DNA of 64,000 nucleotides from Candidatus Iainarchaeum sp. (GTDB taxonomy: Archaea > Iainarchaeota > Iainarchaeia > Iainarchaeales > SKW153): the NCBI GenBank assembly GCA_026414365.1, contig JAOAJD010000001.1, forward strand, positions 167,687-231,686, written 5' to 3'. This document shows, one piece after another, positions 2,552-28,086 of the stretch. Positions within the stretch are counted from its first letter, which is position 1. Every line of letters begins with the position of its first letter. The translations under genes and the position numbers were made by a program. The notes below the pieces were generated by a model that was not told where the DNA came from, did no database searches, and worked only from the letters and a program-made list of their open reading frames with translations.

Positions 2552-3645
2552 AAACAGCAAAAGATAAGGAAGTTACAGAAAAATTAGAAAATGTTGGAAA
2601 AACAATATTATCACAAATAGAGAAGGGTCAAAACCCAACTTTTAGACTACCATTAAGAACTTTAAGCAATGTATACTTTGATGAAAAAACAGGTACAATA
2701 AAACTTGGAGACAAGATGGCAGATAGACAATTCCTCAATATAGCTCATAGTAGGAAATTCATGCAAACGATGCTTGTTGCTGCAGAGATAAAAAAAGTAA
2801 TACAAGAAGAAGCTACGATAAGTATCAGAGATTTATATTATGCATTAAAACACACTATAGAAGGAACTCAAGAAAATACTTTTGAAGAACAATCAGAAAG
2901 TGATCCTTGTATTGAAGATATTGAATGCTCTTTAGACCTATTAAGAGAAGAACTTCATTTAGCCGCTTCTGCAAAAGGAATTATAGCAGGAGATGTTTTA
3001 ATAAAGGATGGAAAGGATACAATAGATCTAACCAAAATGGGTTCTGGAGGTTGGAGTGTTCCATCTAACGTTGAACCTGATAGAATAGAGTTTAAAAAAG
3101 TAAATGCAGAATATGTACTGTTCATAGAGAAAGATGCTGTTTGGAGAAGATTCAACGAAGATCAGTTCTGGAAAAAACAAAATTGTATAATTATGACAGG
3201 TAGAGGCCAACCTGGTAGAGGTGAAAGAAGATTAGCTCAAAGACTGAACAAAGAATTTGGCTTACCAATATATGTTCTAACAGATGCTGATCCATGGGGT
3301 ATGTATATCTACAGTGTAATAAAACAAGGTTCTATTGCATTGTCATATTCTGAAGAAAAGTTAGCTACACCACAAGCAAAATTTTTAGGCTTATTGACAC
3401 AAGACGTAGAAAAATATAATATTCCTAAGGAAGTAACTATAAAACTAAACAACTTGGATGTAAAAAGATTAAAAGAAATGGAAAATTACAAATGGTTCCA
3501 AAAGAAAGAGTGGAAAGAAGAATTTAAGAATATGAAAGAAAAAGGATACAAACTAGAGCTAGAAGCACTAAGCAAAAAAGGGATAAGATTCATAACAGAA
3601 AAATACGTTCCTGAAAAAATAAAAAACAAAGAATTTTTGCCATAG
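2548..3645 (+). CDS. top6A: DNA topoisomerase VI subunit A (Spo11 homolog)
   Basis: Toprim region LTDADPWGMYIY, winged-helix/5Y-CAP region, 365 aa, translationally coupled to top6B. Confidence 0.9.
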   Translation: MKTAKDKEVTEKLENVGKTILSQIEKGQNPTFRLPLRTLSNVYFDEKTGTIKLGDKMADRQFLNIAHSRKFMQTMLVAAEIKKVIQEEATISIRDLYYALKHTIEGTQENTFEEQSESDPCIEDIECSLDLLREELHLAASAKGIIAGDVLIKDGKDTIDLTKMGSGGWSVPSNVEPDRIEFKKVNAEYVLFIEKDAVWRRFNEDQFWKKQNCIIMTGRGQPGRGERRLAQRLNKEFGLPIYVLTDADPWGMYIYSVIKQGSIALSYSEEKLATPQAKFLGLLTQDVEKYNIPKEVTIKLNNLDVKRLKEMENYKWFQKKEWKEEFKNMKEKGYKLELEALSKKGIRFITEKYVPEKIKNKEFLP

Positions 3646-5708: not shown

Positions 5709-6419
5709 TTGGCATTAAGACCAGGAAGATGTTATAGAAGCAAGAAAGATAGACCATATACTAGGTTAGCAGTTACTGTGCATTCTAGAAACTATATTGG
5801 TGCTGCTCCAGGTTTGAAGATAAGACAATTCAATATGGGAAACCCAGTAAAAGATTTTAATAAAATATTAGATCTTGTCGTACAAGAAGATGTTCAGATA
5901 AGGGATAATGCATTAGAAAGTGCAAGGATGTTGATAAATAGATATTTGGTTAGAAAATTAGGTAAAGATGGGTTCTTTGCAAAATTAAGAATATACCCTT
6001 ACCATGTGCTTAGAGAAAATAAACAAGCACAAGGAGCTCATGCTGATAGAATACAAAAAGGTATGAGCCATGCATTTGGAAAAGCAATTGGTAGGGCTGC
6101 AAGAGTAAGACCTGGACAAAAAATAATAAGTATTTTAGTTGATGAACAAAATGTTGAAGTCGCAAAAGAGGCTTTAAGAAGGGCTAAATCAAAATTAAAT
6201 TGCAAAATAAAGATAAGAGTAGGTGATGATGTAAAGTCAATAGGTACAAGACCGAGAAAGACAAAGATAGAGCTCATTGAAAAGAAAGAAGAAGCTGCTA
6301 AAGAAACAAAAGAAACAAAAACAGAAGCTCCACAAGCTGCAAAAGAGGAAGCTAAGAAAGATACTAAAGCGGCCAAAGAAGAAAAGAAAGAAGAGAAAAA
6401 AACAGAGAAAGCAAAGTAA
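5709..6419 (+). CDS. rpl10e: 50S ribosomal protein L10e (uL16) with K/E-rich C-terminal extension
   Basis: N-terminus ALRPGRCYR...YTR, conserved L10e/L16 core; apparent TTG start; ~45 aa low-complexity KE-rich tail. Confidence 0.85.
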   Translation: MALRPGRCYRSKKDRPYTRLAVTVHSRNYIGAAPGLKIRQFNMGNPVKDFNKILDLVVQEDVQIRDNALESARMLINRYLVRKLGKDGFFAKLRIYPYHVLRENKQAQGAHADRIQKGMSHAFGKAIGRAARVRPGQKIISILVDEQNVEVAKEALRRAKSKLNCKIKIRVGDDVKSIGTRPRKTKIELIEKKEEAAKETKETKTEAPQAAKEEAKKDTKAAKEEKKEEKKTEKAK

Positions 6420-6447
6420 CATAAATTTTATTCTAATTTTCTTTTTT

Positions 6448-7449
6448 ATGAAACTAGAAATAAAGATAGAAGAAATATATCCTCAAATAGAAAATCTAAA
6501 GGAAAAAGAATTTATTATACAAATACCTGAAGGTCTAAAAATAAGGACCTTAGATATAATTAACAATTTAAAAAGTAGATTCCCAGATAGAGAGTTTTAT
6601 ATTTTAGTTGATCCTTGCTATGGTGCTTGTGACTTGGCAATAAACAGTGCAGATGCACTTGGGATAAAAACAATTTTACATTTTGGTCATAGAAAGATTT
6701 TAGAAAAAAAGAATGTTCTATATGTACCCGTAGAATATAAAATATCAGAAGATGAATTGGAAAGAGTTGCTAACGATATATATAAAGAAATAAAAAAACA
6801 AAATCTTGAAAAAATTCTCTTAGTTGCATCTTCACCATATATTAGTTATATAGATGAAATTGCAAAAAAAATTAAAGAAAAAGAGATTAATGTAATGATT
6901 CCAGAAGGTAGTGAAAGGGCAAGAGAGAGAGGTTTAATACTAGGCTGTAATTATGAAGTAATAAAAAATATTTCAAATATAGATTCTATCTTATTAATCA
7001 GTGATGCTGAATTTCATGCAATAGGTTTATCTCTATCTACAAATAAAAAAATAATATACTACGATATGATCGAGAACAAAATAATAGATCTAGAAAAAAA
7101 GAGAGAATTATTTCTAAGAAAAAGGTTTGCACAGATTGCACTAGCAAAAGAAGCTAAGATTTTTGGAATATTAATATCAACAAAGATAGGTCAAAAAAGA
7201 AAAGATTTGGCAATTCAGATAAAAAAAGAATTATTTAAAAGAAATAGAGAAACAATAATGTTAGTAGCAGATTATATTTTACCAGAATATCTAGAAGGTA
7301 TAAAAGTAGATTGTTTTATTAACACAGCATGCCCAAGAATAGCATTTGAAAGCGAAAGATGGAAAAAGCCAATAATTAATCCTAATGAATTAGAAATTGT
7401 TTTGGATATAAGAAAATGGGAAGATTACAATATGGAACAAATTTTATAA
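6448..7449 (+). CDS. dph2: 2-(3-amino-3-carboxypropyl)histidine synthase (diphthamide synthesis Dph2)
   Basis: Start moved to ATG 6448 (upstream part of the ORF is the K-rich alternate frame of the L10e tail); motifs IQIPEGL, YGACD, HFGH, LGCNY, RKRFAQIA, ACPR match archaeal Dph2. Confidence 0.8.
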   Translation: MKLEIKIEEIYPQIENLKEKEFIIQIPEGLKIRTLDIINNLKSRFPDREFYILVDPCYGACDLAINSADALGIKTILHFGHRKILEKKNVLYVPVEYKISEDELERVANDIYKEIKKQNLEKILLVASSPYISYIDEIAKKIKEKEINVMIPEGSERARERGLILGCNYEVIKNISNIDSILLISDAEFHAIGLSLSTNKKIIYYDMIENKIIDLEKKRELFLRKRFAQIALAKEAKIFGILISTKIGQKRKDLAIQIKKELFKRNRETIMLVADYILPEYLEGIKVDCFINTACPRIAFESERWKKPIINPNELEIVLDIRKWEDYNMEQIL

Positions 7450-7462
7450 ATTTTATTAAAAT

Positions 7463-8335
7463 TCAATATTCTATCTCATCCAAATCTATTTTATCTTCAT
7501 TAAAACTTTTTGTACCTTTCATATTTGGATAATCTGTGTCTTTATTATCTAAGAAATCTTCATTAGAAGGTTCTATTAAGGTTCCTTCAAATGATTGGCC
7601 TTTTATAAAAGATCTTAGATTATCTATATTTCTTCCATTTAAAACAGCTGCTTTTATTTTACTTCTCCTTAGTATTAGAACACAAGGAATATCTAAAACA
7701 AAGTTTTGTCCTGGCAAGGAATTTGCTTCTCTTAAAATAGATAGTAATTTATTATAACTTATTTTATCATACAACTTAGCATCTTTATTATACCTTGGAT
7801 CGGAACTATAAATTCCATTAACATTTGTCAGATTAACAAAGACTGCATCTAAATATTCTGCCAACAATGCAGCTACAGAATCAGTTGTTAAAGAAGGCAA
7901 AACACCACCATAAATAGGAATCTTTCCTGAAGAGATTATTGCTTTTGAATCACTTATGTGCTTATCAATACAAAGATCGCTGTTTTTGAATAAACCTGCT
8001 AATATTGTTGCATTTGCTTTAGTTGCTAATATTGCTGCTTTATCCTTAACAAAATTATTTACTCCTAAAGTATCAGCTATTCTACAATATTCTCTAGCGG
8101 GCTTTCCTCCACCAACCACTATGCAAAATCTAAATCCTTCTGAAATAAGTTCTTCTATTGTAGAAACAAATCTCACAACTAATTCTTTATCAACATCCTC
8201 TCCAAAAAATATCGAACCGCCTGCAGAAATAACAAAAATTTTATTATTTGGTGCTTGTTGTGTTTGTTCACTAATTATTGAATCCCCAAACATTTCGAAT
8301 ATGTTTGACATTAAACCACCATTATTACAAAACAA
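7463..8335 (-). CDS. pyrH: uridylate (UMP) kinase, amino-acid-kinase family
   Basis: IFVISAGGS ... IVVGGGKPAREY ... ILATKANATILA pattern of archaeal UMP kinase; N- and C-terminal extensions, exact start uncertain. Confidence 0.6.
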   Translation of the reverse strand: MFCNNGGLMSNIFEMFGDSIISEQTQQAPNNKIFVISAGGSIFFGEDVDKELVVRFVSTIEELISEGFRFCIVVGGGKPAREYCRIADTLGVNNFVKDKAAILATKANATILAGLFKNSDLCIDKHISDSKAIISSGKIPIYGGVLPSLTTDSVAALLAEYLDAVFVNLTNVNGIYSSDPRYNKDAKLYDKISYNKLLSILREANSLPGQNFVLDIPCVLILRRSKIKAAVLNGRNIDNLRSFIKGQSFEGTLIEPSNEDFLDNKDTDYPNMKGTKSFNEDKIDLDEIEY

Positions 8336-8427
8336 ATTAAATATTTAATATTAATAAAATAATATTATAATTTAATAATAAATATTGACTTCTTATTTTT
8401 CTAATTATGAAAATAATTAGATAAGAT

Positions 8428-9669
8428 GTGGACTTTATGACAAAATTTGAAGATGTGGATGAAGCAGAGTTTTCATTATTCAAAAAAAAATTAGTGAAGC
8501 TTTCATCATATTCTGGCAAAGGCACTGAACTAATAAGTCTCTATATACCAGAAGATGCAGATAGAGGTAGTGTAATGAGCCAGTTAACAGAAGAAACAAG
8601 TCAAGCATCAAATATAAAAAGTCCACAAACAAGAAAAAATGTTCAAGGAGCGCTAAGAAAGATAATCGGATTTTTAAAAACAATAGATTTTAAAATTCCA
8701 AAAAGAGGATTAGCAATATTTTGCGGCAATATTTCTGAAGTAGAAGGAAAAACAGATATTAGGTTATTTACAGTTCATCCAATAAAACAACTTAGAACAA
8801 AACTTTATTGGTGTGATTCAAAATTCCATTTAGATCCTTTATATGAAATGATACAACCTTCTGATGTTTACGGTGTTGTTGCAATAGACAAGAATGAATC
8901 AACCTTGGCAATAATAAGTGGAAAACATTACGAGATAATTGGAAAATTTACTTCCGGCTACCATGGAAAGTTTAGAGCAGGAGGTTGGTCTGCGAAAAGA
9001 TTTGAACATTTGAGAGAAGAATCAGAGCACGAGTTTTACAAAAGAATCAGCGAAAAAATGAACAGTTATTTTATTCAACTTGGAGATAAGTTGAAAGGTA
9101 TAATAGTAGGTGGCCCAGGGATGACAAAAAATTACTTTTTGAATAAAGAGCTTTTAGATCATAGATTAAAAGCAAAAATAATAGGTTTAATTGATTCTTC
9201 TTATACAGACGAATATGGAATAAGAGAGATAATACAAAAATCAGACAAGTTGTTAAAAGAAACAGATTTGATTAAAGAAAAAGAGATAATAGATAAATTC
9301 ATGGAAGAAATATCTAAAGATGGGTTGGCAATATATGGAGAAAAAGAAATCAACGAGGCATTAGAAATTGGCAAAGTGGACAGATTATTGATATCTGAAG
9401 GTTTGGATTGGAGCGTTCTAAGGTTTAGGTGTAATAATTGCAATCACGAAATTCAAATTGTAGATAAAGAACATAAGATAGAAACCCAAAAATGTGAGAA
9501 ATGTAATTATGAGATGGAATTAATTGAGGAGAAAGATTATATTGATTATATGTTAGAGAAGGCTGCACAAACTGCAGCAGAAGTCAAAGTAATATCTACA
9601 GAAAGTTCTGAAGGACAACAATTCCTAAAAGCATTTGGTGGCTTAGGAGCTCTATTGAGATATAAATGA
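8428..9669 (+). CDS. prf1: peptide chain release factor aRF1 (eRF1 homolog), GGQ motif reads GGW; Zn-ribbon insertion in C-domain
   Basis: NIKS motif (QASNIKSPQTRKNV), GG-x-SAxRF block (FRAGGWSAKRFEHLR), C-terminal CNNC...CEKC insertion, ~413 aa. Confidence 0.8.
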   Translation: MDFMTKFEDVDEAEFSLFKKKLVKLSSYSGKGTELISLYIPEDADRGSVMSQLTEETSQASNIKSPQTRKNVQGALRKIIGFLKTIDFKIPKRGLAIFCGNISEVEGKTDIRLFTVHPIKQLRTKLYWCDSKFHLDPLYEMIQPSDVYGVVAIDKNESTLAIISGKHYEIIGKFTSGYHGKFRAGGWSAKRFEHLREESEHEFYKRISEKMNSYFIQLGDKLKGIIVGGPGMTKNYFLNKELLDHRLKAKIIGLIDSSYTDEYGIREIIQKSDKLLKETDLIKEKEIIDKFMEEISKDGLAIYGEKEINEALEIGKVDRLLISEGLDWSVLRFRCNNCNHEIQIVDKEHKIETQKCEKCNYEMELIEEKDYIDYMLEKAAQTAAEVKVISTESSEGQQFLKAFGGLGALLRYK

Positions 9670-9705
9670 TAAAAGCTGAAATATACATAAAAAAACAAGA
9701 TTAAG

Positions 9706-10989
9706 ATGATGAAAGTTGAATCCAAAAAATTAAGAAGGATAGGGATAGAATACTACGCTAGCTCTACATCTGGAATCGATGGGGAGATAAAAAGAAGAAT
9801 ATCTGATTTTATAGTTGAAGAAGTCTCTGAAGAACATGTCTGTAGTATAAAGGCTTTCTCAGACAAAGAAAAAAAAGAGATTGAATTTAAAGATATTGAA
9901 AATTCTGATAATAAAAAATATTTGATTTTAGAATTAGAAAAATACAACATGGATTTGAATTATGCGATAAGGAAAATAGCAAGATGGTTGCAAAGCAGTA
10001 GATATATAATTGGCTTTGCTGGAGTAAAAGACAAAAGAGCAATAACATGTCAAAGAATATCTATTAAAGAACCGGATATTAAAAGGTTAAAGGAATTTAA
10101 GTCAAGATATATCTCTTTAAGGCCTATATGTTGGTCAGACAATCAAATAGAAATAGGAATGTTAGAAGGAAATATCTTCAAAGTTACAATAAGAAAAATA
10201 GAAATTAAAGAAGAGGAAATTGAAAGGAGAGTAAAAGAATGTTTTAAAGAAATTTCTAATGGTGTACCAAACTATTTTGGCAGTCAGAGATTTGGAGGTA
10301 TAAGAGGGTTAACCCATGTTGTTGGCAAAGAGCTACTAAAAGGGAATTTTAAAGAAGGTGTATTAAAATATCTTTGTGAAGAAAATGAAGAAGAGGATGA
10401 AGAAATTAAAAATGCAAGAAGAAATCTAAAAGAAACATTAGATTATTCAAAGGCATCTAAAGAATTCCCACTAAAATACAGGTATGAAAGAGCAATCATT
10501 CATCATCTATGTAAATATCCTAAAGACTATGTTAATGCTTTTGGGAAATTACCCAAAAGTTTAAGATATATGTTTACGCATGCTTATCAAGGATATCTAT
10601 TTAATAAAGCAATAAGTAGAAGGTTTGAATTAGGGATTGGGCTAAAGAGATTGGAAGATGATGTTTTAGATAAAGATGGAAATCCAACTGCTTCTTTGAT
10701 AGGTTACGAAACTGAGTTTGGTAATAGTACACAAAGCAAAATAGAACAACAAATTCTAGAAGAAGAAGGAATAACAAAAGATTTGTTTTATGTTAAAAAA
10801 ATGCCAGAAATAAGTAGTAAAGGTTCAAGAAGATCAATAATTGTAAAACCAGAAAGATTAGAGATTGTTGAAATAGGAAAAGATGAATTCAACGAAGGAA
10901 AAAACAAGATAACAATAAGTTTCTACTTGCCAAAGGGTAGCTATGCTACAGTTGTTATAAACGAGATTATTAAAAATGGTTTGTGCTAA
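9706..10989 (+). CDS. truD: tRNA pseudouridine(13) synthase TruD/Pus7
   Basis: TruD motifs: ISDFIVEEV, GFAGVKDKRAIT (catalytic Asp), NYFGSQRFG. Confidence 0.75.
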   Translation: MMKVESKKLRRIGIEYYASSTSGIDGEIKRRISDFIVEEVSEEHVCSIKAFSDKEKKEIEFKDIENSDNKKYLILELEKYNMDLNYAIRKIARWLQSSRYIIGFAGVKDKRAITCQRISIKEPDIKRLKEFKSRYISLRPICWSDNQIEIGMLEGNIFKVTIRKIEIKEEEIERRVKECFKEISNGVPNYFGSQRFGGIRGLTHVVGKELLKGNFKEGVLKYLCEENEEEDEEIKNARRNLKETLDYSKASKEFPLKYRYERAIIHHLCKYPKDYVNAFGKLPKSLRYMFTHAYQGYLFNKAISRRFELGIGLKRLEDDVLDKDGNPTASLIGYETEFGNSTQSKIEQQILEEEGITKDLFYVKKMPEISSKGSRRSIIVKPERLEIVEIGKDEFNEGKNKITISFYLPKGSYATVVINEIIKNGLC

Positions 10990-10998
10990 AAATTTTTC

Positions 10999-11940
10999 AT
11001 GAAATTTTTAATTTTTTACTTTAGTTGCTTCTTAATTTCGCTAATATTTGTCTATATTTATATAAACATCAACAGAAGAATGAAACTGTTTTACGGAATA
11101 GACATAAATAAAAAATCTTTGCCTAAGATTACAGAATCTGGTGGTATAGCAGTATTATTTTCAATATGGTTTCTTATAATTTTAAACAATTATTTAGGAT
11201 TTATAAAAATTGACTATAGTTTGCTTGGTTGGTTACTTTTAATTAGTTCTTTTTCAATTGTAGGGATAATAGATGATAGTAAAAACAAATTTTTATCTAA
11301 ACCAATCCCATGGAAAACAAGAGCTTTTTTTATAGCACTAATCTGCCTTTTATTTTCTTGGTTGTTCATAACAAAGGATTTGCTTTTAGTAATTTTGGCT
11401 TCTCTATTCATTGCTGCTATCGCATCTTTTCATAACACTTTTGCTGGCCTAAACGGCTGGGAAGTAGGAAGCTCTTTTATAATATCTATCTTCACATCTA
11501 TTTTATTAGTAAACACAAGTTACTTTTACATATCTTTAATAATATCATCATCAATACTTGCTTTGCTTATCTTTAACAAATATCCTGCAAGAATATTTCC
11601 TGGTGACTCGGGAACATTGCTTTTTGGATCTTCTTTGGGAACTTTAATATTATTAAATCAGAACCTAAAGATATTGGTCATTTTTGTATTATTCTATATT
11701 CCCCATATCATAGACTTCTTCTTTTTAAAACTGTTAACAAACCCAAAAGATGTTTCTCAAAGTAAAGTAAAACCTTATGAACTAAAATATAATAAACTAA
11801 CAATTCCTAAAAATTCAGGTTATGATTTTGCGAAACTAATAATAAAAATATTTGGCCCTTTAGAAGAATGGAAAATTGTATTAATAATTTGGATTATTGT
11901 TATAATTAACTGTTCATTTTGGCTTTTGGTTATTAAGTGA
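10999..11940 (+). CDS. polytopic membrane glycosyl-1-phosphate transferase (MraY/WecA/AglH-like, GT4 family)
   Basis: Multiple TM helices, IIDDSKN and FPGDSGTLLFG motifs resembling DDxxD and PGD motifs of the family. Confidence 0.4.
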   Translation: MKFLIFYFSCFLISLIFVYIYININRRMKLFYGIDINKKSLPKITESGGIAVLFSIWFLIILNNYLGFIKIDYSLLGWLLLISSFSIVGIIDDSKNKFLSKPIPWKTRAFFIALICLLFSWLFITKDLLLVILASLFIAAIASFHNTFAGLNGWEVGSSFIISIFTSILLVNTSYFYISLIISSSILALLIFNKYPARIFPGDSGTLLFGSSLGTLILLNQNLKILVIFVLFYIPHIIDFFFLKLLTNPKDVSQSKVKPYELKYNKLTIPKNSGYDFAKLIIKIFGPLEEWKIVLIIWIIVIINCSFWLLVIK

Positions 11941-12909
11941 TTTTAATATAGGATAAGATACAAATAAGCTTAATGCAGTAGGCAAAAACAACCTGACAAA
12001 ATCATAAACTACTATAAGCGCCACTATTTCTTTTATTTTAAAAGAACTACCTATAAGAGAAGGCATCGCTAAAATGTAATATCCAGAAATTTCTACTAAA
12101 CCAATACCTCTTGGCAACAAAGGATTTCTCTCTAAAACTGCAAATAAAGTTGCTAGCAACAAAACCTGTGATAAACCAATCTGTAGATTTAAAGATAAAA
12201 AACAAAAATATAATGCTAAAAACTCAAAAGTCCAAGAAAGAAGACAGAAAAAAAAGACAATCAAAATCAAGCCGATATTTGTTTGGTTGAGATATTCTGT
12301 GTATTCTTCAAAAAAGTTACCTAACTTTTTACTAAAACCTAGAAACCTTATTTGAGATAGAGAATTAAAAAGTTGTGCGATGGACAAACCTATTGCTCTA
12401 TTGAAAGGAAGCAAAAAAAGCAAACAAGCCAACAAAATAACAAACAAACCACTCAAATAATAAAATATCAAAGAAATGTCTGGCTTTGTAGTAGTTAAAT
12501 AATAAAAGAAGAGAAATATTGCAAACAAAGCAATTATAAAAAATTTTATTCCTTTAGCAACCATAGAAGCAGATATAGAAGTTTTGTAATCTATTTTATA
12601 CAATCTCTTAAGATTTATTGACCTTAAAGCCTCTGCACCTATTTGGACTGGTGTTAAGGAACCATAAAATGATGCAACTCCTATAGATAAAGAGTCAACC
12701 AATTTGACATTACATGTATTTTTTATTAGACAAGCCCATCCAAAAAGCCATACAATAACTGAAACAATAAAGAAAAATGATGCTACTATTAAGAAAAAAA
12801 TATTGGTAGTGTAAATAATATCTATTGCCTCACTTATATGGGTTATTATAAAAAGAACTGCTCCAAAAACCAACAGAAAAAGAAGCGTTTTTGTTATGTT
12901 TGATTCCAA
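11914..12909 (-). CDS. integral membrane protein (flippase-like/UPF0104-like)
   Basis: ~8 predicted TM segments, no soluble domain; overlaps 3' end of upstream gene by 27 nt. Confidence 0.3.
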   Translation of the reverse strand: MESNITKTLLFLLVFGAVLFIITHISEAIDIIYTTNIFFLIVASFFFIVSVIVWLFGWACLIKNTCNVKLVDSLSIGVASFYGSLTPVQIGAEALRSINLKRLYKIDYKTSISASMVAKGIKFFIIALFAIFLFFYYLTTTKPDISLIFYYLSGLFVILLACLLFLLPFNRAIGLSIAQLFNSLSQIRFLGFSKKLGNFFEEYTEYLNQTNIGLILIVFFFCLLSWTFEFLALYFCFLSLNLQIGLSQVLLLATLFAVLERNPLLPRGIGLVEISGYYILAMPSLIGSSFKIKEIVALIVVYDFVRLFLPTALSLFVSYPILKSLNNQKPK

Positions 12910-12913
12910 ATGC

Positions 12914-13600
12914 TCACCTTATTAAACCTTCTGCCTTTTTATTAGAAGCTTCAATTGCCAAATCTGCATTCTCATTAAATAGTTTCCTAAGCACTAAGTG
13001 GCTTAATTGAGAAATATCGTGCTCAGATTTTGGCTTTATTTCAATTAACCCTTCTTCTACTCTGATCTTAGATTGTTTATTATTAGGTTTTTCTATCAAA
13101 ATTTTTACATAAGAATTGTTATCTAAGTAAGCCAAACATTCGTTCTTATCTAACTCCTTTCCAGTCAAAACATCTCCTTCATTGGTATAACAATAATTAA
13201 CATCATTTCCTTCTGTAACCCTGCCTAAAATAATAGTTGATTTACCTAAATATGTTAAGACAACAGTAAACCTAACTATTGCATCAGACATTTGAGAATT
13301 TAAGTAAGAACTTTCTTTAGTAAACTCTGGAGATATTAAAAACAATTTTCTTTCTGCTATTTGCGCTAAAAGCAAAGAAGGTTTTTTTGTATTAGAATAA
13401 AAAAGAATTCCTTGAAAGAATTCTTCGTTTTGTTTTTCTTGCTTCAATAAATCACTAATTAAAGCAAAAGAAAAAGTGAATATTAAAATTAGTATGAAAA
13501 CTGCAAATAAAACACCATATTTTTGAAACAAATTTTCTTTTTTGTTATGCTGATGTTTTTTTTCTTGGTTATTATTTTTATCCTTCTCCATTTTTATCAC
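12914..13600 (-). CDS. hypothetical membrane-anchored protein
   Basis: K/E-rich N-terminus then single TM (VLFAVFILILIFTFSFALI), soluble C-domain. Confidence 0.3.
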   Translation of the reverse strand: MIKMEKDKNNNQEKKHQHNKKENLFQKYGVLFAVFILILIFTFSFALISDLLKQEKQNEEFFQGILFYSNTKKPSLLLAQIAERKLFLISPEFTKESSYLNSQMSDAIVRFTVVLTYLGKSTIILGRVTEGNDVNYCYTNEGDVLTGKELDKNECLAYLDNNSYVKILIEKPNNKQSKIRVEEGLIEIKPKSEHDISQLSHLVLRKLFNENADLAIEASNKKAEGLIR

Positions 13601-13894
13601 ACAATAAAAAATTCAATTTAATAAAAATTAAATTAAAAATACAATATTTTAGCTGATTCCCAGATTTAACTTTTTTGAAGCTTAAAATCCTTTGATAATA
13701 AAATATCTTAAAACTTAAATATTTTAAAGTTAAGCACCTGAGAACAAGGTAAAAATTAAGAAAACAAATATTTTTAAATTCCTGACAAGAACAAAAATTA
13801 AATCAGTAACATTAAATCGGTAACATTTTAGAAATAAAAAACAAACTCAGAAAACAAAAACAGAACAAAAAACAAAAAATTATAAAAACAAAAA

Positions 13895-13930
13895 AGAAAA
13901 AAGAGAAGGAAAGGCCTTTAGCCTAACCTT
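13895..13930 (-). terminator. putative terminator of the surface-protein gene (GC hairpin AGGC-CTTTA-GCCT followed by T-rich run on minus strand)
   Basis: Short GC-rich inverted repeat at ~13913-13925 immediately 3' of the stop at 13941, then oligo-T on the transcribed strand. Confidence 0.3.
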
Positions 13931-13940
13931 TTTATTTTAT

Positions 13941-16778
13941 TTATTGGCTAATTGCTTGGATGAACTCTCTTGCTGCAGATATTGTATCTTGAGCTGTATA
14001 ACCTGCTACAATGATATCTCCGCTTGAGAGCTTCTGTACAACTTTTTGACCTGCTGTATTCAAAGCTATCTCTTCTTCATATTGCTTGGCTATCTTGTTA
14101 ACTATTGGACCACCTACTATTACGAATGGCCCTGTAGTAGCATCATTATCTAATACTACTAAGTTGCCAACAGTAGCTGGTACAACAGCTTTAGCAACCG
14201 ATGGTGTACATGTAGCTTGACCTGTTCCTGCAGCAGTACAGCTTGCGGTTATACTGACATCATCTATCTTTACTACTACACCGTCTGTTGTTGTAAAGGT
14301 ATCTCCTTTCTTCAATGCTTTCTTACTCTCGCCGCCTTCTACAGTTACTGCCTGCTCACCGCCATAAACTGTTACTAAAATATCTGCTGCGCTATTTGGA
14401 ATCCTTAGCTTGGTATTATCTTCACTTTCTTCTAACCATACCTTGGTACCATTGTCTATATATGCTGCAGTATATGCATCATCATCCTCTTCGTCATTAC
14501 TTAGTTCTAACTTTGCAGTTCCTGCCACCATTAATTCTGCGAAAGAATTAACAGCATCAGTTCCATCGAAATTACTAAGAGTATAACTACTAACACCGAA
14601 TACTGCTGCATTATATCCTCTATTTTCTAACTTTTCATTTCCGATTGGCAATAGTCCTCCTGTGTTAGTATTAACTGTTACAACTGTTCCATAACCACTA
14701 TCTTTAACTAAGAAATATGCTGTGAAATATGCATCTGAATTTTTGAATGGATTATTACTAGTATTGCCCCAATTAGAAACTTTTGTACTCTTAGGCACAT
14801 ATGCTTTTATAAAGTCTCGAGTATTACCATTAGCAGGATTACAATCGTAACAATAGTATACAGTACCAGGACTACCAACAGTAACTGTACCAAACTCACC
14901 TTCCTCTTTAATATCGCTTGCTGCTTTTGTCAAACCTGTTCCATAGAAATATATTTGTTTACCGTTGTTTGTTACGAAAGGTGCTCCTGTATTTTCACTT
15001 AATACGAAAAAGATATCTTTCCCATCCTCTGACAATATCACATCATAGTTTACAGGACTTAGACCACCGAACTTAGTATCCACATCGTAATAATTTGCGT
15101 TATATAGAGAAGTAGGACTACTTAAACTTATTGTTTGAATAGGAGAACTACCACTATTACACTCAACAACAGTTGGATTACATATATATATCTTATTTGT
15201 ACTACCATCGTAAGTTACTTTTATATCTGCAGTAACTCCGCCTTCTTTGTAAATAGTCAAAGACTCATCTTCACCTGCGCTCACTGTGTAATAGAATGGT
15301 ATTTTATTAGTTCCATTTGCTGCAGTATATACTATTCCAGAACCGCTACCTAATTCAATTGGAGCATTCTCACCAATAATTACTGCATCCATTGTTCTAC
15401 CTGAATAATCAAAGCCTTTGAAATCAACTTTGAAATAGTTTCTACCTACAGGCAATTCTTCTCCAAATACTGCTGGCTTTCCTGTTTTGCCTTTCAAAGA
15501 TTGTCCTGGGAATGTTGGATACAATGGTGATGTTTTTCCTTTAGTATCATAAGTCCACGTTTTCTTATAGTTAGAAATTGTTATTCCCATTAAATCTTTT
15601 GCAGTACTACTATAATTTATTGTTGCTCTATAATAATCATCGCTTGTATTATTATCGTTGTCGTAAGGGAACTCTGCATTATTTCTTATTATTAAGGTAT
15701 CAGACCCTTTTCTTATTGAAACCCCTGGTAGACCAGTTGCTACTGTTTTATAAATAGAGCTGACAAACACATTATCTAAGATTAGATTCTCTCCGTCGTC
15801 TGAAACCAAACTGTCTTTAGCATTTTCGCCACTATATACTTCGTCTGACTCTGCAACCTCTTGACCATCTACAACTAATGCAAACACTACATGATAATCG
15901 TCTTCTTCGCCAGTAACTGCCACTCTCTTAACCTTCAAACTAACTGTTTTACCTTTATAAGGTCCATCACCAGCTATGCCTTGTATCAATTCACCTTCCT
16001 GATAACTCTTACTTGAAGTTTCTGGCTTAACTAAAGTTAACTCTAGTGGGTTTTCAGTAAATTTCTGGAGAGTATATAATTCACCAAATAGGTAAATCGG
16101 TATATTATCTTTTGATGTATCTTCGAAAGAATCATTATTAGTATTATCCCACCCTTTTGCATCATTCAAACTTATACCACTACCAAAAGAAATAGTATAA
16201 TTCAACTCTCCTTCGTCAATGTAAGCAACTAGATCTTGTAAATCTTCTTCACTTGCATCAAACTTGGCATCAACTGTTACGTTTAACGTCTCTTTTTCTA
16301 ATATGTCTGTTACATCTCCTTTTAATCTAACTTTAACTTGCTTATCTAATAAATAAGGCAATGCTGCTTTTGTTATATTTTGGTTATCTACTTCTACTGC
16401 TGAGGAACCTGTTGAGGAATCTAATGTAGTTCTAAAAACTTTAGTGTCTTCCAAACTGAAAGTACTTCTTCCTCCAACTGTCAAATCAACTGTAGCTGAT
16501 GGATTGGTTAATTGACATGTTGCTGAAGCTGCTGAGCCTGAACAAGTTACTGTTTGCTCAGAATATGCTAAAGACGCAATCTTTGCAGCAATGTTACCTG
16601 CCCAAACTGCATCTGTAATTTGAGCAGCTGAACCAACAACTACTTTAACTTTTGGTGTACCGTTGTCATTTATCACGTCAGATTTGCCTATAGCACTAAC
16701 AAAAGGTGCTAAAGCAGATCCGACTAATGCAGCACCTGCTGCAATAGCAGCAATTTTCTTTACTGACATTCCTTTCAT
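13941..16778 (-). CDS. large secreted cell-surface (S-layer-like) protein
   Basis: 945 aa, N-terminal signal peptide MKGMSVKKIAAIAAGAALVGSALAPFVSA, T/S/G/N/D-rich beta-rich composition, long AT-rich upstream and downstream regions. Confidence 0.55.
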   Translation of the reverse strand: MKGMSVKKIAAIAAGAALVGSALAPFVSAIGKSDVINDNGTPKVKVVVGSAAQITDAVWAGNIAAKIASLAYSEQTVTCSGSAASATCQLTNPSATVDLTVGGRSTFSLEDTKVFRTTLDSSTGSSAVEVDNQNITKAALPYLLDKQVKVRLKGDVTDILEKETLNVTVDAKFDASEEDLQDLVAYIDEGELNYTISFGSGISLNDAKGWDNTNNDSFEDTSKDNIPIYLFGELYTLQKFTENPLELTLVKPETSSKSYQEGELIQGIAGDGPYKGKTVSLKVKRVAVTGEEDDYHVVFALVVDGQEVAESDEVYSGENAKDSLVSDDGENLILDNVFVSSIYKTVATGLPGVSIRKGSDTLIIRNNAEFPYDNDNNTSDDYYRATINYSSTAKDLMGITISNYKKTWTYDTKGKTSPLYPTFPGQSLKGKTGKPAVFGEELPVGRNYFKVDFKGFDYSGRTMDAVIIGENAPIELGSGSGIVYTAANGTNKIPFYYTVSAGEDESLTIYKEGGVTADIKVTYDGSTNKIYICNPTVVECNSGSSPIQTISLSSPTSLYNANYYDVDTKFGGLSPVNYDVILSEDGKDIFFVLSENTGAPFVTNNGKQIYFYGTGLTKAASDIKEEGEFGTVTVGSPGTVYYCYDCNPANGNTRDFIKAYVPKSTKVSNWGNTSNNPFKNSDAYFTAYFLVKDSGYGTVVTVNTNTGGLLPIGNEKLENRGYNAAVFGVSSYTLSNFDGTDAVNSFAELMVAGTAKLELSNDEEDDDAYTAAYIDNGTKVWLEESEDNTKLRIPNSAADILVTVYGGEQAVTVEGGESKKALKKGDTFTTTDGVVVKIDDVSITASCTAAGTGQATCTPSVAKAVVPATVGNLVVLDNDATTGPFVIVGGPIVNKIAKQYEEEIALNTAGQKVVQKLSSGDIIVAGYTAQDTISAAREFIQAISQ

Positions 16779-25880: not shown

Positions 25881-26600
25881 CTACAGTAGCATGTGAGCCA
25901 GATAGAAATCTATCTTGGAAGTTCCTATGTTATAGCTTATCTTCATTGGGGAATCATTACCTAAAGCAATAAAAATATCCTTATCATTATCTGCCTCTTT
26001 GATTATATTGGATAAAAAGTTTAGGGAATATTTAGAAATAACTTCTTTAGAAGCATTTATTTTGACCAACTTTTCTTTCGCTTCAATTACCAAACTACCC
26101 GCAGTACTTTTAGACTCTAAACTTAAAATTCCTTTATTAACTCTGAAAATGACAGAACTACCAAACAAAGCTGCATCTTTTAATGCCTCTTTTAACACTT
26201 TAGCAGTTATTTTAATATTAGCCGTCTCCTCTATCTTAGGAATATCAATTTCTTCTTCACTTATGTCTATTAGGGGTAAACTAAAACTCCTAAAAACTTC
26301 GCCCTTCAAAAAAATTTTAATTTCAGAATCATCTATTTCTAAAGATAACTCATCTTCAGGATTTGCCCGGGATAAAACCTTATTGAATTCTGTTATATCA
26401 ACACCTATCAAAGTTGGCTCTACATCGAATTTATCAAAAATTTTCTTATCTGCAAAATAGTCAACTAAAACTATTTGACTTGGGTCTATAGATCTAAAAA
26501 ACAAACCTCTATCATTAAATCTGAAATTACCTTCAGAAATAAAAGAAGATATTGCAGATATTGCCTTCCTAAAAAACTCTGGATTTCTTACTACTATCAT
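25881..26600 (-). CDS. pcn: DNA polymerase sliding clamp PCNA (paralog 1)
   Basis: 239 aa, two-domain PCNA pattern incl. IDPSQIVLVDY and C-terminal region. Confidence 0.85.
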   Translation of the reverse strand: MIVVRNPEFFRKAISAISSFISEGNFRFNDRGLFFRSIDPSQIVLVDYFADKKIFDKFDVEPTLIGVDITEFNKVLSRANPEDELSLEIDDSEIKIFLKGEVFRSFSLPLIDISEEEIDIPKIEETANIKITAKVLKEALKDAALFGSSVIFRVNKGILSLESKSTAGSLVIEAKEKLVKINASKEVISKYSLNFLSNIIKEADNDKDIFIALGNDSPMKISYNIGTSKIDFYLAHMLL

Positions 26601-27238: not shown

Positions 27239-27988
27239 CTACTCTACTTCTATACGAGGGGCAAGATAATAAATAATATTTGCTTTCCCAATATCATACT
27301 GTAACTTAACTGGCGCATCTTGTTTTAACCACAACATGATTTCTGTATTCGGTGAAGTTCCTTTCATCATATTAGAAAGATAATCCAAAGGAAATGTAGC
27401 CTTTAAACTACCCTTAGATTTTAAAGATATTAATGCAGTATCATTTTTTGATAATTCATTCCTAAAACTTCCTTTACTTGATTCTGCATACATAACAAAA
27501 GTGCCATCATCGATGGCTAGAGTAATATGATTACTTAATAAAGAAGCATCTTTCAAAGAATCTTGAAACATGTCTGCCTTTATTTTAAGTTCGGCATCAA
27601 AACTAATTTTTGGATTTGGCAATTCCATTGAACTAATATCTATGAGTGGAACAGAAAATGTTCTCTTAGAAGCACCTTTCAGGATTATTTTTAGATTGCC
27701 CTCTTCGACAATTAGATGAAGTTCATCTTTAGGTTTTGCTCTAGAAACAAGCTCTGCAAGATGATTTAAATCTAGACCTATTTTTGTCTTTTCAACTAAT
27801 TTATATGATTTAAAACTTTCTTTTTTAATTAGAAAATCCACCATAGAAATTTGACTAGGATCTGTAGCCTTTAAGGTTAAACCATTATTATCAACTATAA
27901 ACTCTGCTTCGTTTATAAGCACAGAGATTGCATCTATGCTCTTCTTAAAATCGGATGCCTCTTCTAAAACAAGTTCTAAATTAGTCAT
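27239..27988 (-). CDS. pcn: DNA polymerase sliding clamp PCNA (paralog 2)
   Basis: ~30% identical to paralog 1 (ATDPSQISMVDF, YLAPRIE); start set to MTNLELV by alignment with paralog 1 (ORF track begins 18 nt upstream). Confidence 0.8.
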   Translation of the reverse strand: MTNLELVLEEASDFKKSIDAISVLINEAEFIVDNNGLTLKATDPSQISMVDFLIKKESFKSYKLVEKTKIGLDLNHLAELVSRAKPKDELHLIVEEGNLKIILKGASKRTFSVPLIDISSMELPNPKISFDAELKIKADMFQDSLKDASLLSNHITLAIDDGTFVMYAESSKGSFRNELSKNDTALISLKSKGSLKATFPLDYLSNMMKGTSPNTEIMLWLKQDAPVKLQYDIGKANIIYYLAPRIEVE

Positions 27989-28086
27989 GTAAATAATGAA
28001 ATACAAAAAGAATATTAATAATTACTCTGATGTCCTCTAAAAAATGTTATTTTTAATAATTGCGCCAGACATGCAAAAAAGATTAG

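Follow-up and report, generated by a model that had tools for sequence, protein, structure and literature searches.

The gene for the archaeal release factor aRF1 in a 64,000 nt stretch of a Candidatus Iainarchaeum sp. genome (contig JAOAJD010000001.1, positions 167,687–231,686; the whole stretch is hereafter called the window) encodes a Trp instead of the Gln of the catalytic GGQ motif. With a probability of roughly 70%, we consider that its product would be the ordinary, working omnipotent class-I release factor of the organism, in which the Gln has been swapped for Trp. We favor this reading because of the orthology of the gene to canonical aRF1 genes, the constraint on its other motifs, the invariance of the Gly-Gly pair, the recurrence of the replacement and the restriction of the replacing residues to W, F and M. 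Additionally, the window is 89% coding, with intact open reading frames (ORFs), and its genes end in TAA (36), TGA (16) and TAG (9), so that the cell needs an omnipotent release factor. GGQ is regarded as being among the few motifs that are invariant across all three domains of life; it arose independently in release factors of bacteria and in those of archaea and eukaryotes, and its Gln is the target of dedicated methyltransferases.

Identity of the aRF1 Gene and Position of the Trp Residue

The ORF, as mechanically delimited, spans positions 8428–9669 of the forward strand (413 codons, with a GTG start at 8428) and ends in a TGA codon (9667–9669), which forms tandem in-frame stops with the following TAA (TGA TAA, 9667–9672). 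The NCBI annotation starts instead at the ATG at 8437 and gives an identical protein of 410 aa (MCX8158226.1, from a metagenome-assembled genome, MAG, of Diapherotrites/Iainarchaeota; "Candidatus Diapherotrites archaeon," 522,072-bp contig). Pfam domains for the three parts of the factor were found, all on the forward strand: the N domain, for stop-codon recognition (eRF1_1, PF03463; residues 20–142, positions 8485–8853, E = 1.1e-13), the M domain, which bears the catalytic loop (eRF1_2, PF03464; residues 148–278, 8869–9261, E = 4.4e-36), and the C domain (eRF1_3, PF03465; residues 282–413, 9271–9666, E = 5.8e-28). The N domain contains the NIKS motif, as QASNIKS (residues 59–65, 8602–8622), and the YxCxxxF motif, as YWCDSKF (residues 127–133, 8806–8826), in which Trp128 is encoded by TGG, while a zinc-ribbon insertion of the form CNNC...CEKC occupies positions 9430–9504 in the C domain. 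In a 74-sequence alignment, the N, I and K of the first motif (N62, I63, K64) and the Y, C and F of the second were invariant.

The protein scored 475.9 bits against the NCBIfam equivalog model for aRF1 (TIGR03676, cut-off 234.7). An AlphaFold (AF2) model built from the same alignment reached a predicted local distance difference test (pLDDT) value of 92.4, and its top PDB matches with Foldseek were aRF1 4af1 (E = 1e-41) and the ribosome-bound eRF1 5lzt (template modeling score, TM, 0.80). Judged by its domains and predicted fold, the ORF is thus a complete three-domain aRF1. The original prediction, made from the letters of the window, had called the gene aRF1, and this is borne out by the TIGR03676 score, the three Pfam domains and the fold match; the QASNIKS motif and the zinc-ribbon insertion in the C domain were also located as it had stated.

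The catalytic loop, GKFRAGGWSAKRF (residues 180–192, positions 8965–9003), includes the codons GGA GGT TGG (8980–8988), for Gly185-Gly186-Trp187, and in the AlphaFold model it immediately precedes a long helix beginning at residue 187. In HMMER alignments this GGW falls on the GGQ of aRF1 from Halobacterium salinarum (4af1) and of eRF1 from yeast (4crn) and human (3e1y), confirming the reading of Trp at the Gln position in the original prediction. The concern voiced there that the motif could have been misplaced is removed by the same alignments, which revealed no second GGQ near GGW in the protein; likewise, there is no Gln within loop residues 180–192. Around position 187, residues G185, G186, S188 and R191 are invariant in the 74 sequences, with identities down to 31%. 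The protein shows every aRF1 trait that we tested, save the Gln of GGQ.

Genomic Locus and Selective Constraint

The gene is part of a conserved neighborhood, delimited with Pfam (positions 5709–16778), that comprises genes for L10e, Dph2, an amino-acid kinase (−), aRF1, TruD, GT4, LPG-synthase (−), orf228 (−) and an S-layer protein (−). The same order is common to the GGW genes (those of the window, L007 and L011/L012) and to a GGF gene (L008–L010), and was also found around the GGQ genes L001, L003, L005 and L006, from Iainarchaeum MAGs. Since the order is shared by genomes with GGW, GGF and GGQ genes, synteny identifies the window gene as the positional ortholog of canonical GGQ aRF1.

There are 117 columns with at least 95% conservation in an alignment of 110 GGQ homologs; the window protein (P0001) deviates in four of them, including that of the Gln, compared with an average of 1.6, and a maximum of eight, for the GGQ proteins themselves. 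Within the GGW clade, nonsynonymous divergence (dN) was 0.19–0.25 and synonymous divergence (dS) was saturated; for L011 and L007, values were dN = 0.20 and dS = 1.71 (dN/dS of approximately 0.12). Pairs of near-identical genes differed by synonymous changes only (synonymous to nonsynonymous, 4:0, 1:0, and 1:0). The substitution pattern thus indicates that the window gene is under purifying selection. Separately, the column of residue 376 of P0001, in the C domain, contains Ala in 106 of the 110 GGQ proteins and Val in six of seven GGW and eight of 15 GGF proteins, not including that of the window; this A376V change may reflect convergence or phylogenetic coincidence.

Recurrence of aRF1 Proteins Lacking the GGQ Gln

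Among the best 120 homologs of the window aRF1, 111 had GGQ, five GGW and four GGF. The GGW proteins (P0001, P0002, P0003, P0005, and P0048, from NCBI, ENA, Logan, and JGI) include, besides that of the window, four from other assemblies that are 64–74% identical to it, which gives a positive answer to the question raised in the original prediction of whether GGW is lineage-wide. A neighbor-joining tree grouped GGW in one deep clade (five clusters) and GGF in two others, all of them nested among GGQ proteins. Every clade of Iainarchaeota lacking the Gln is nearer to some GGQ proteins (66–73% identity) than to the other such clades (58–65%).

A metagenome scan with the pattern G-K-x-x-A-G-G-[codon starting with T]-S-x-x-R-F retrieved eight distinct loci of further true aRF1 genes, with NIKS and YxCxxxF present and 34–43% identity to the query; an additional locus, L025, sits on the JGI contig of L008. 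Five of the eight have GGW (L027, L031, L046, L049, L055) and two GGF (L062/L070), and the remaining one, L056, has a stop codon. This last gene, on the minus strand of a 3.6-kb metagenome contig, contains an in-frame TAG at the Gln codon (approximately 3541–3543; GKSRAGG*SARRF), for which a nonsense allele, a mistake in the sequence and read-through are all conceivable; the gene next to it seems to terminate normally in TAG. One of the two shortest paths from Q to W, both of two steps, goes from CAG to TAG to TGG, and the other one goes via CGG.

When the L046 protein was used as query, the best 120 homologs, aRF1 proteins of Aenigmarchaeota/Aenigmatarchaeota, comprised 113 with GGW and seven with GGQ. 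The GGW and GGQ genes of Aenigmatarchaeota occur at one locus, flanked by genes for a KaiC-like ATPase (−) and Nop5 (−), and this shared arrangement shows them to be orthologs rather than co-resident paralogs. With P0287, an intein-spliced GGM protein, as query, another large set from Aenigmatarchaeota was obtained, and 114 of the 119 homologs listed had GGM, three GGW, two GGF and none GGQ; some of these homologs are on contigs of up to 938 kb. Near-complete DPANN contigs with non-Gln genes include JGI Ga0452208_000006 (GGW, 275 kb), Ga0452209_000001 (GGW, 665 kb) and Ga0315291_10000004 (GGF, 457 kb), and GCA_038998295.1 (GGM).

An exhaustive HMMER search of representatives at 50% identity, from which the best 150 hits were taken, provided 146 newly fetched sequences. 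The residue at the Gln site was Q in 122 of them, W in nine, M in five, F in three, E in two and S in one, the remaining four being fragments; two more representatives with W (P0187 and P0250) are outside this set. Gly-Gly was retained in all of these homologs, and the replacements were almost solely W, F and M, which are large and hydrophobic; this is not the random spectrum that would be expected of decay. Non-Gln aRF1 proteins form a much wider, apparently undescribed DPANN pattern, to which that of the window belongs; we found no report of an aRF1 with GGW, GGF or GGM in open-access papers and bioRxiv, and a description may exist elsewhere. From these comparisons it seems rather probable that whole archaeal lineages end every protein with a release factor lacking both the catalytic Gln and its methylation, including most Aenigmatarchaeota (GGW/GGM), several clades of Iainarchaeota (GGW, GGF), the genome of the window among them, and further uncultured groups. 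In that case ribosomal peptide release would not require GGQ, and a bulky hydrophobic residue would suffice, whether by standing in for methyl-Gln or by taking part in an altered chemistry of release in these reduced, symbiotic cells.

The rare motifs GGE and GGS occur in the aRF1-like representatives P0365, P0402 and P0311; of these, P0365 (GGE; WP_455278356.1) bears the name aRF-1 of "[Eubacterium] cellulosolvens," in which such a protein is unexpected. The peptide bond directly after GGx is also a hot-spot for inteins. Many aRF1 genes contain one at GGQ|C...HN|S, and inteins were found as well after GGW, GGF, GGM and GGS; examples are P0064, P0092 and P0099, L005 and L006 (in which the aRF1 match begins at residue 185), and 55 of the 146 representatives (P0258–P0403).

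Relationship to Known Families of the aeRF1 Superfamily

The window protein shares with canonical aRF1 and eRF1 (4af1 from H. salinarum, 3agk/3vmf from Aeropyrum pernix and 1dt9 from human) the three-domain fold, NIKS and YxCxxxF, a Gly-Gly loop followed by S-x-x-R-F, the zinc ribbon of the C domain and the orthologous genomic position, differing from them in having Trp187 where they have Gln. This Gln has been called universally conserved, and in Haloferax volcanii it receives an N5-methyl group from Mtq2 (PMC6144793), a modification of the Gln that is impossible on the window protein because of its Trp. No ORF for an Mtq2-like methyltransferase, of NPPY type, was present in the window or in the fetched loci, a result that applies to these loci and not to whole genomes; the methyltransferases encoded near aRF1 genes of Aenigmatarchaeota were rejected as candidates for Mtq2, as they are of generic types.

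The nearest known parallel to the window loop, also with GGW, is that of acVLRF1, which together with aVLRF-1 belongs to the aeRF1 superfamily. Approximately 34 high-GC loci from our scan, including L013, L014, L016, L019, L024, L026, L030 and L033, encode bacterial acVLRF1 (NF041024, 206 bits, cut-off 125), and all of them have the loop GKTKAGGWSQQRF. This 13-mer is identical in acVLRF1 and in the aRF1 proteins P0151/P0157 of Aenigmatarchaeota, a hint that the M domain of acVLRF1 may be of DPANN-type origin. The acVLRF1 family, named a peptidyl-tRNA hydrolase in NF041024, offers an instance of a loop without the GGQ Gln in a predicted active hydrolase. Nevertheless, aVLRF-1 and acVLRF-1 were described as sharing a "GGxSQ" motif whose Gln at +2 was taken as catalytic (Burroughs and Aravind, 2019, PMC6514570), and the +2 residue is Ala in the window protein (GGWSA) and Gln in acVLRF1 (GGWSQ). 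Furthermore, the stop-codon (N) domain is missing from acVLRF1, and aVLRF-1 has a coiled-coil extension but no C domain (PMC6514570), whereas the window protein has all three domains and no extension. We rejected a compensating Gln at +2 as a required substitute: it is absent from the window protein and from 36 of the 111 GGW proteins of Aenigmatarchaeota that are intein-free at the site, and GGQ lineages often have it as well.

Pelota/Dom34 and the Balon/Rv2629-type relatives have the same superfamily fold and also lack the catalytic Gln, but unlike the window protein they have neither NIKS nor YxCxxxF, and their loop is not conserved. Model scores below the cut-offs led us to reject an identity as Pelota, as an Rv2629-type protein or as acVLRF1. 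The Pelota model TIGR00111 gave 94.1 bits (cut-off 177.65), matching only the M and C domains and not the Sm-like N domain that marks Pelota, and three Balon/Rv2629-type models gave 31.9, 23 and 20 bits (cut-offs of 320, 330 and 480, respectively). Likewise, the VLRF1 models gave 19.5 bits (NF041024, cut-off 125) and 25.4 bits (PF18859, cut-off 27.1).

Release factors without the Gln side chain have also been made in the laboratory, with substitutions in RF1, RF2 and eRF1 reportedly described by Seit-Nebi et al. in 2000, by Mora et al. in 2003 and by Shaw and Green in 2007; the last authors are said to have found that the Gln side chain excludes nucleophiles larger than water. Those mutants are engineered, and lethal or toxic in vivo, whereas the substitution of the window type is natural, fixed and recurrent.

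A Probable Working Release Factor Without the Catalytic Gln

If the window aRF1 is a working release factor, its N domain, with NIKS and YxCxxxF, would read UAA, UAG and UGA, and the factor would be delivered by aEF1alpha-GTP. The loop of the M domain, its shape kept by the invariant Gly-Gly, would then enter the peptidyl-transferase center, where the backbone of the loop, through the residue 187 amide, and the rRNA would promote hydrolysis of the ester. The packing of the Gln side chain in the center could be taken over by a bulky hydrophobic residue, W in this case and F or M in relatives, and W, F and M may mimic the hydrophobic N5-methyl-Gln, making the methylation step by Mtq2 unnecessary. 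The published mechanism is compatible with an active aRF1 without Gln: the backbone amide of the Gln has been proposed as the catalyst of hydrolysis (PMC6742477), and its side chain "assumes a packing role," with methylation orienting it (PMC5799190). Additionally, substitutions of the Gln in human eRF1 fail to eliminate activity completely, according to the title of a study cited in PMC12440015.

Several points weigh against this reading. Mutations in GGQ lower efficiency or admit other nucleophiles in vitro, and mutation of any of its residues was reported to be lethal in model organisms (PMC9589212), while attempts to propagate yeast eRF1 Q182E failed (PMC12440015). The precedent of acVLRF1 is only partial, as the window protein lacks the +2 Gln. 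Also, all the sequences compared are metagenome-assembled, our trees are neighbor-joining trees without support values, and the DNA inspected is 64 kb of a 522-kb contig, with around 458 kb plus the other contigs of the genome lying outside.

Alternative Explanations

A first alternative is that the GGW aRF1 reads stop codons and recruits ABCE1 without hydrolysis, so that the ribosome is split with the peptidyl-tRNA intact and the peptide is later freed by Pth2, by a VLRF1-like factor or by an unknown hydrolase, in a termination route resembling that of Pelota. eRF1 mutants in GGQ can still support ABCE1-driven splitting of the subunits in vitro, which counts for this explanation. So do the lethality of GGQ mutations mentioned above and the use of the Gln as a marker of catalytic competence in the aeRF1 superfamily, in which members without it, such as Dom34, are held to be inactive (PMC6514570). 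However, the Gly-Gly pair and its neighboring Ser and Arg are invariant in every protein with W, F or M that we have seen, whereas this loop is poorly conserved in the truly non-catalytic relatives (PMC6514570), and the replacements are confined to those three residues. Moreover, no gene for Pth2, Pelota, ABCE1 or VLRF1 is linked to the locus. We thus consider this explanation unlikely. The original prediction had foreseen a loss or alteration of hydrolysis from the Trp, barring an error or a second functional factor, and the evolutionary pattern does not point to a loss, with a gene that is at the orthologous locus, that differs in four of the 117 conserved columns and that is under purifying selection, and with W, F or M at the same position, beside an invariant Gly-Gly, across whole DPANN lineages. 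Taken as a whole, that earlier reading of the gene is therefore supported in part.

Alternatively, a second, canonical GGQ aRF1 encoded elsewhere could carry out hydrolysis, with the GGW copy being a specialized paralog acting as a regulator or as a rescue or hibernation factor. The limited portion of the genome inspected leaves room for such a gene, GGQ proteins do occur among the Aenigmatarchaeota homologs (seven, as above), and Balon/Rv2629, which are Gln-less relatives in the aeRF1 superfamily, act as hibernation factors. Conversely, it is the GGW gene that sits at the orthologous locus of GGQ aRF1, and the GGQ and GGW genes found at one locus in Aenigmatarchaeota are alleles across species. 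A phmmer comparison against all six-frame ORFs of the window, searching for a second aRF1 or a Pelota, matched only the aRF1 gene itself, so there is no paralog in the window. Among the best-120 lists there was no second homolog on the same long contig as a non-Gln gene, and the aRF1 was single within 10 kb on either side of the gene for P0447 (on a contig of 21,719, a length equal to that of the P0522 contig). The absence of GGQ among the listed homologs of P0287, together with scores far under the cut-offs for the Rv2629 and Pelota models, also argues against a division of labor, which we regard as quite improbable.

The two remaining explanations have next to no probability. An error of sequencing or assembly, or a gene in decay, in favor of which it could be argued that the source is a MAG, would require two to three base substitutions (CAA/CAG to TGG) in an ORF that is intact and under purifying selection, with the same residue appearing in independent assemblies where the flanking Gly and Ser codons vary synonymously (GGA GGT TGG TCT, GGA GGC TGG AGT and GGC GGA TGG TCT in the three GGW genes fetched). 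Unless read pile-ups were to show CAR at 8986–8988, the presence of GGW in five clusters of 90% identity from NCBI, ENA, JGI and Logan rules out the error considered in the original prediction. Decoding of TGG as Gln, or a post-translational conversion of the Trp, has nothing counted in its favor, the TAG codon of the distant L056 being the only oddity of the kind, and is contradicted by the use of TGG for Trp128, a residue conserved in the family, within this very gene and at 125 codons of the window genes, as well as by relatives with TTC (Phe, read directly in L008–L010) or a called Met, which no single recoding would cover. Reassignment of a stop codon or a suppressor tRNA was similarly rejected, as all three stops terminate genes and the only tRNA gene in the window is for tRNA-Cys.

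If, as we favor, the window protein and its relatives are active release factors, the natural, repeated and lineage-wide swap to W, F or M would amount to an evolutionary experiment on the purpose of the Gln side chain, supporting backbone catalysis and steric packing over a chemical role of the side-chain amide. It would also call for caution in using the presence or absence of the Gln as an activity call for proteins of the aeRF1 family, and would connect the unusual GGWSQ loop found in bacterial acVLRF1 with a DPANN-type aRF1 loop. Likewise, these proteins would provide ready-made sequences for tests of nucleophile selectivity and for release-factor engineering, and would pose a testable question of co-evolution in DPANN, namely whether Mtq2 was lost, or the peptidyl-transferase center altered, along with the swap.

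Other Features of the Window

The window is otherwise an ordinary stretch of archaeal chromosome, with genes for Topo VI, aIF2alpha, GINS, primase, two PCNA, LonB, PheRS, Cdc6, HerA/NurA and a CCA-adding enzyme. Tandem in-frame stops, considered as a sign of leaky termination, were discarded as such: eight of 61 genes have a second stop at +1, compared with six and none in the other frames, in a sample too small and DNA too AT-rich for these counts to carry meaning. The two PCNA genes (25881–26600 and 27239–28006, both on the minus strand) are approximately 600 bp apart, with a gene for ribose-5-phosphate isomerase B between them. Upstream of aRF1, the L10e ORF (5709–6419, +) has a long C-terminal tail that overlaps the Lys-rich N-terminal extension of the Dph2 ORF (6277–7449, +); since the Dph2 domain begins at residue 84 of this mechanical ORF, translation of Dph2 probably starts at an internal ATG near 6450.

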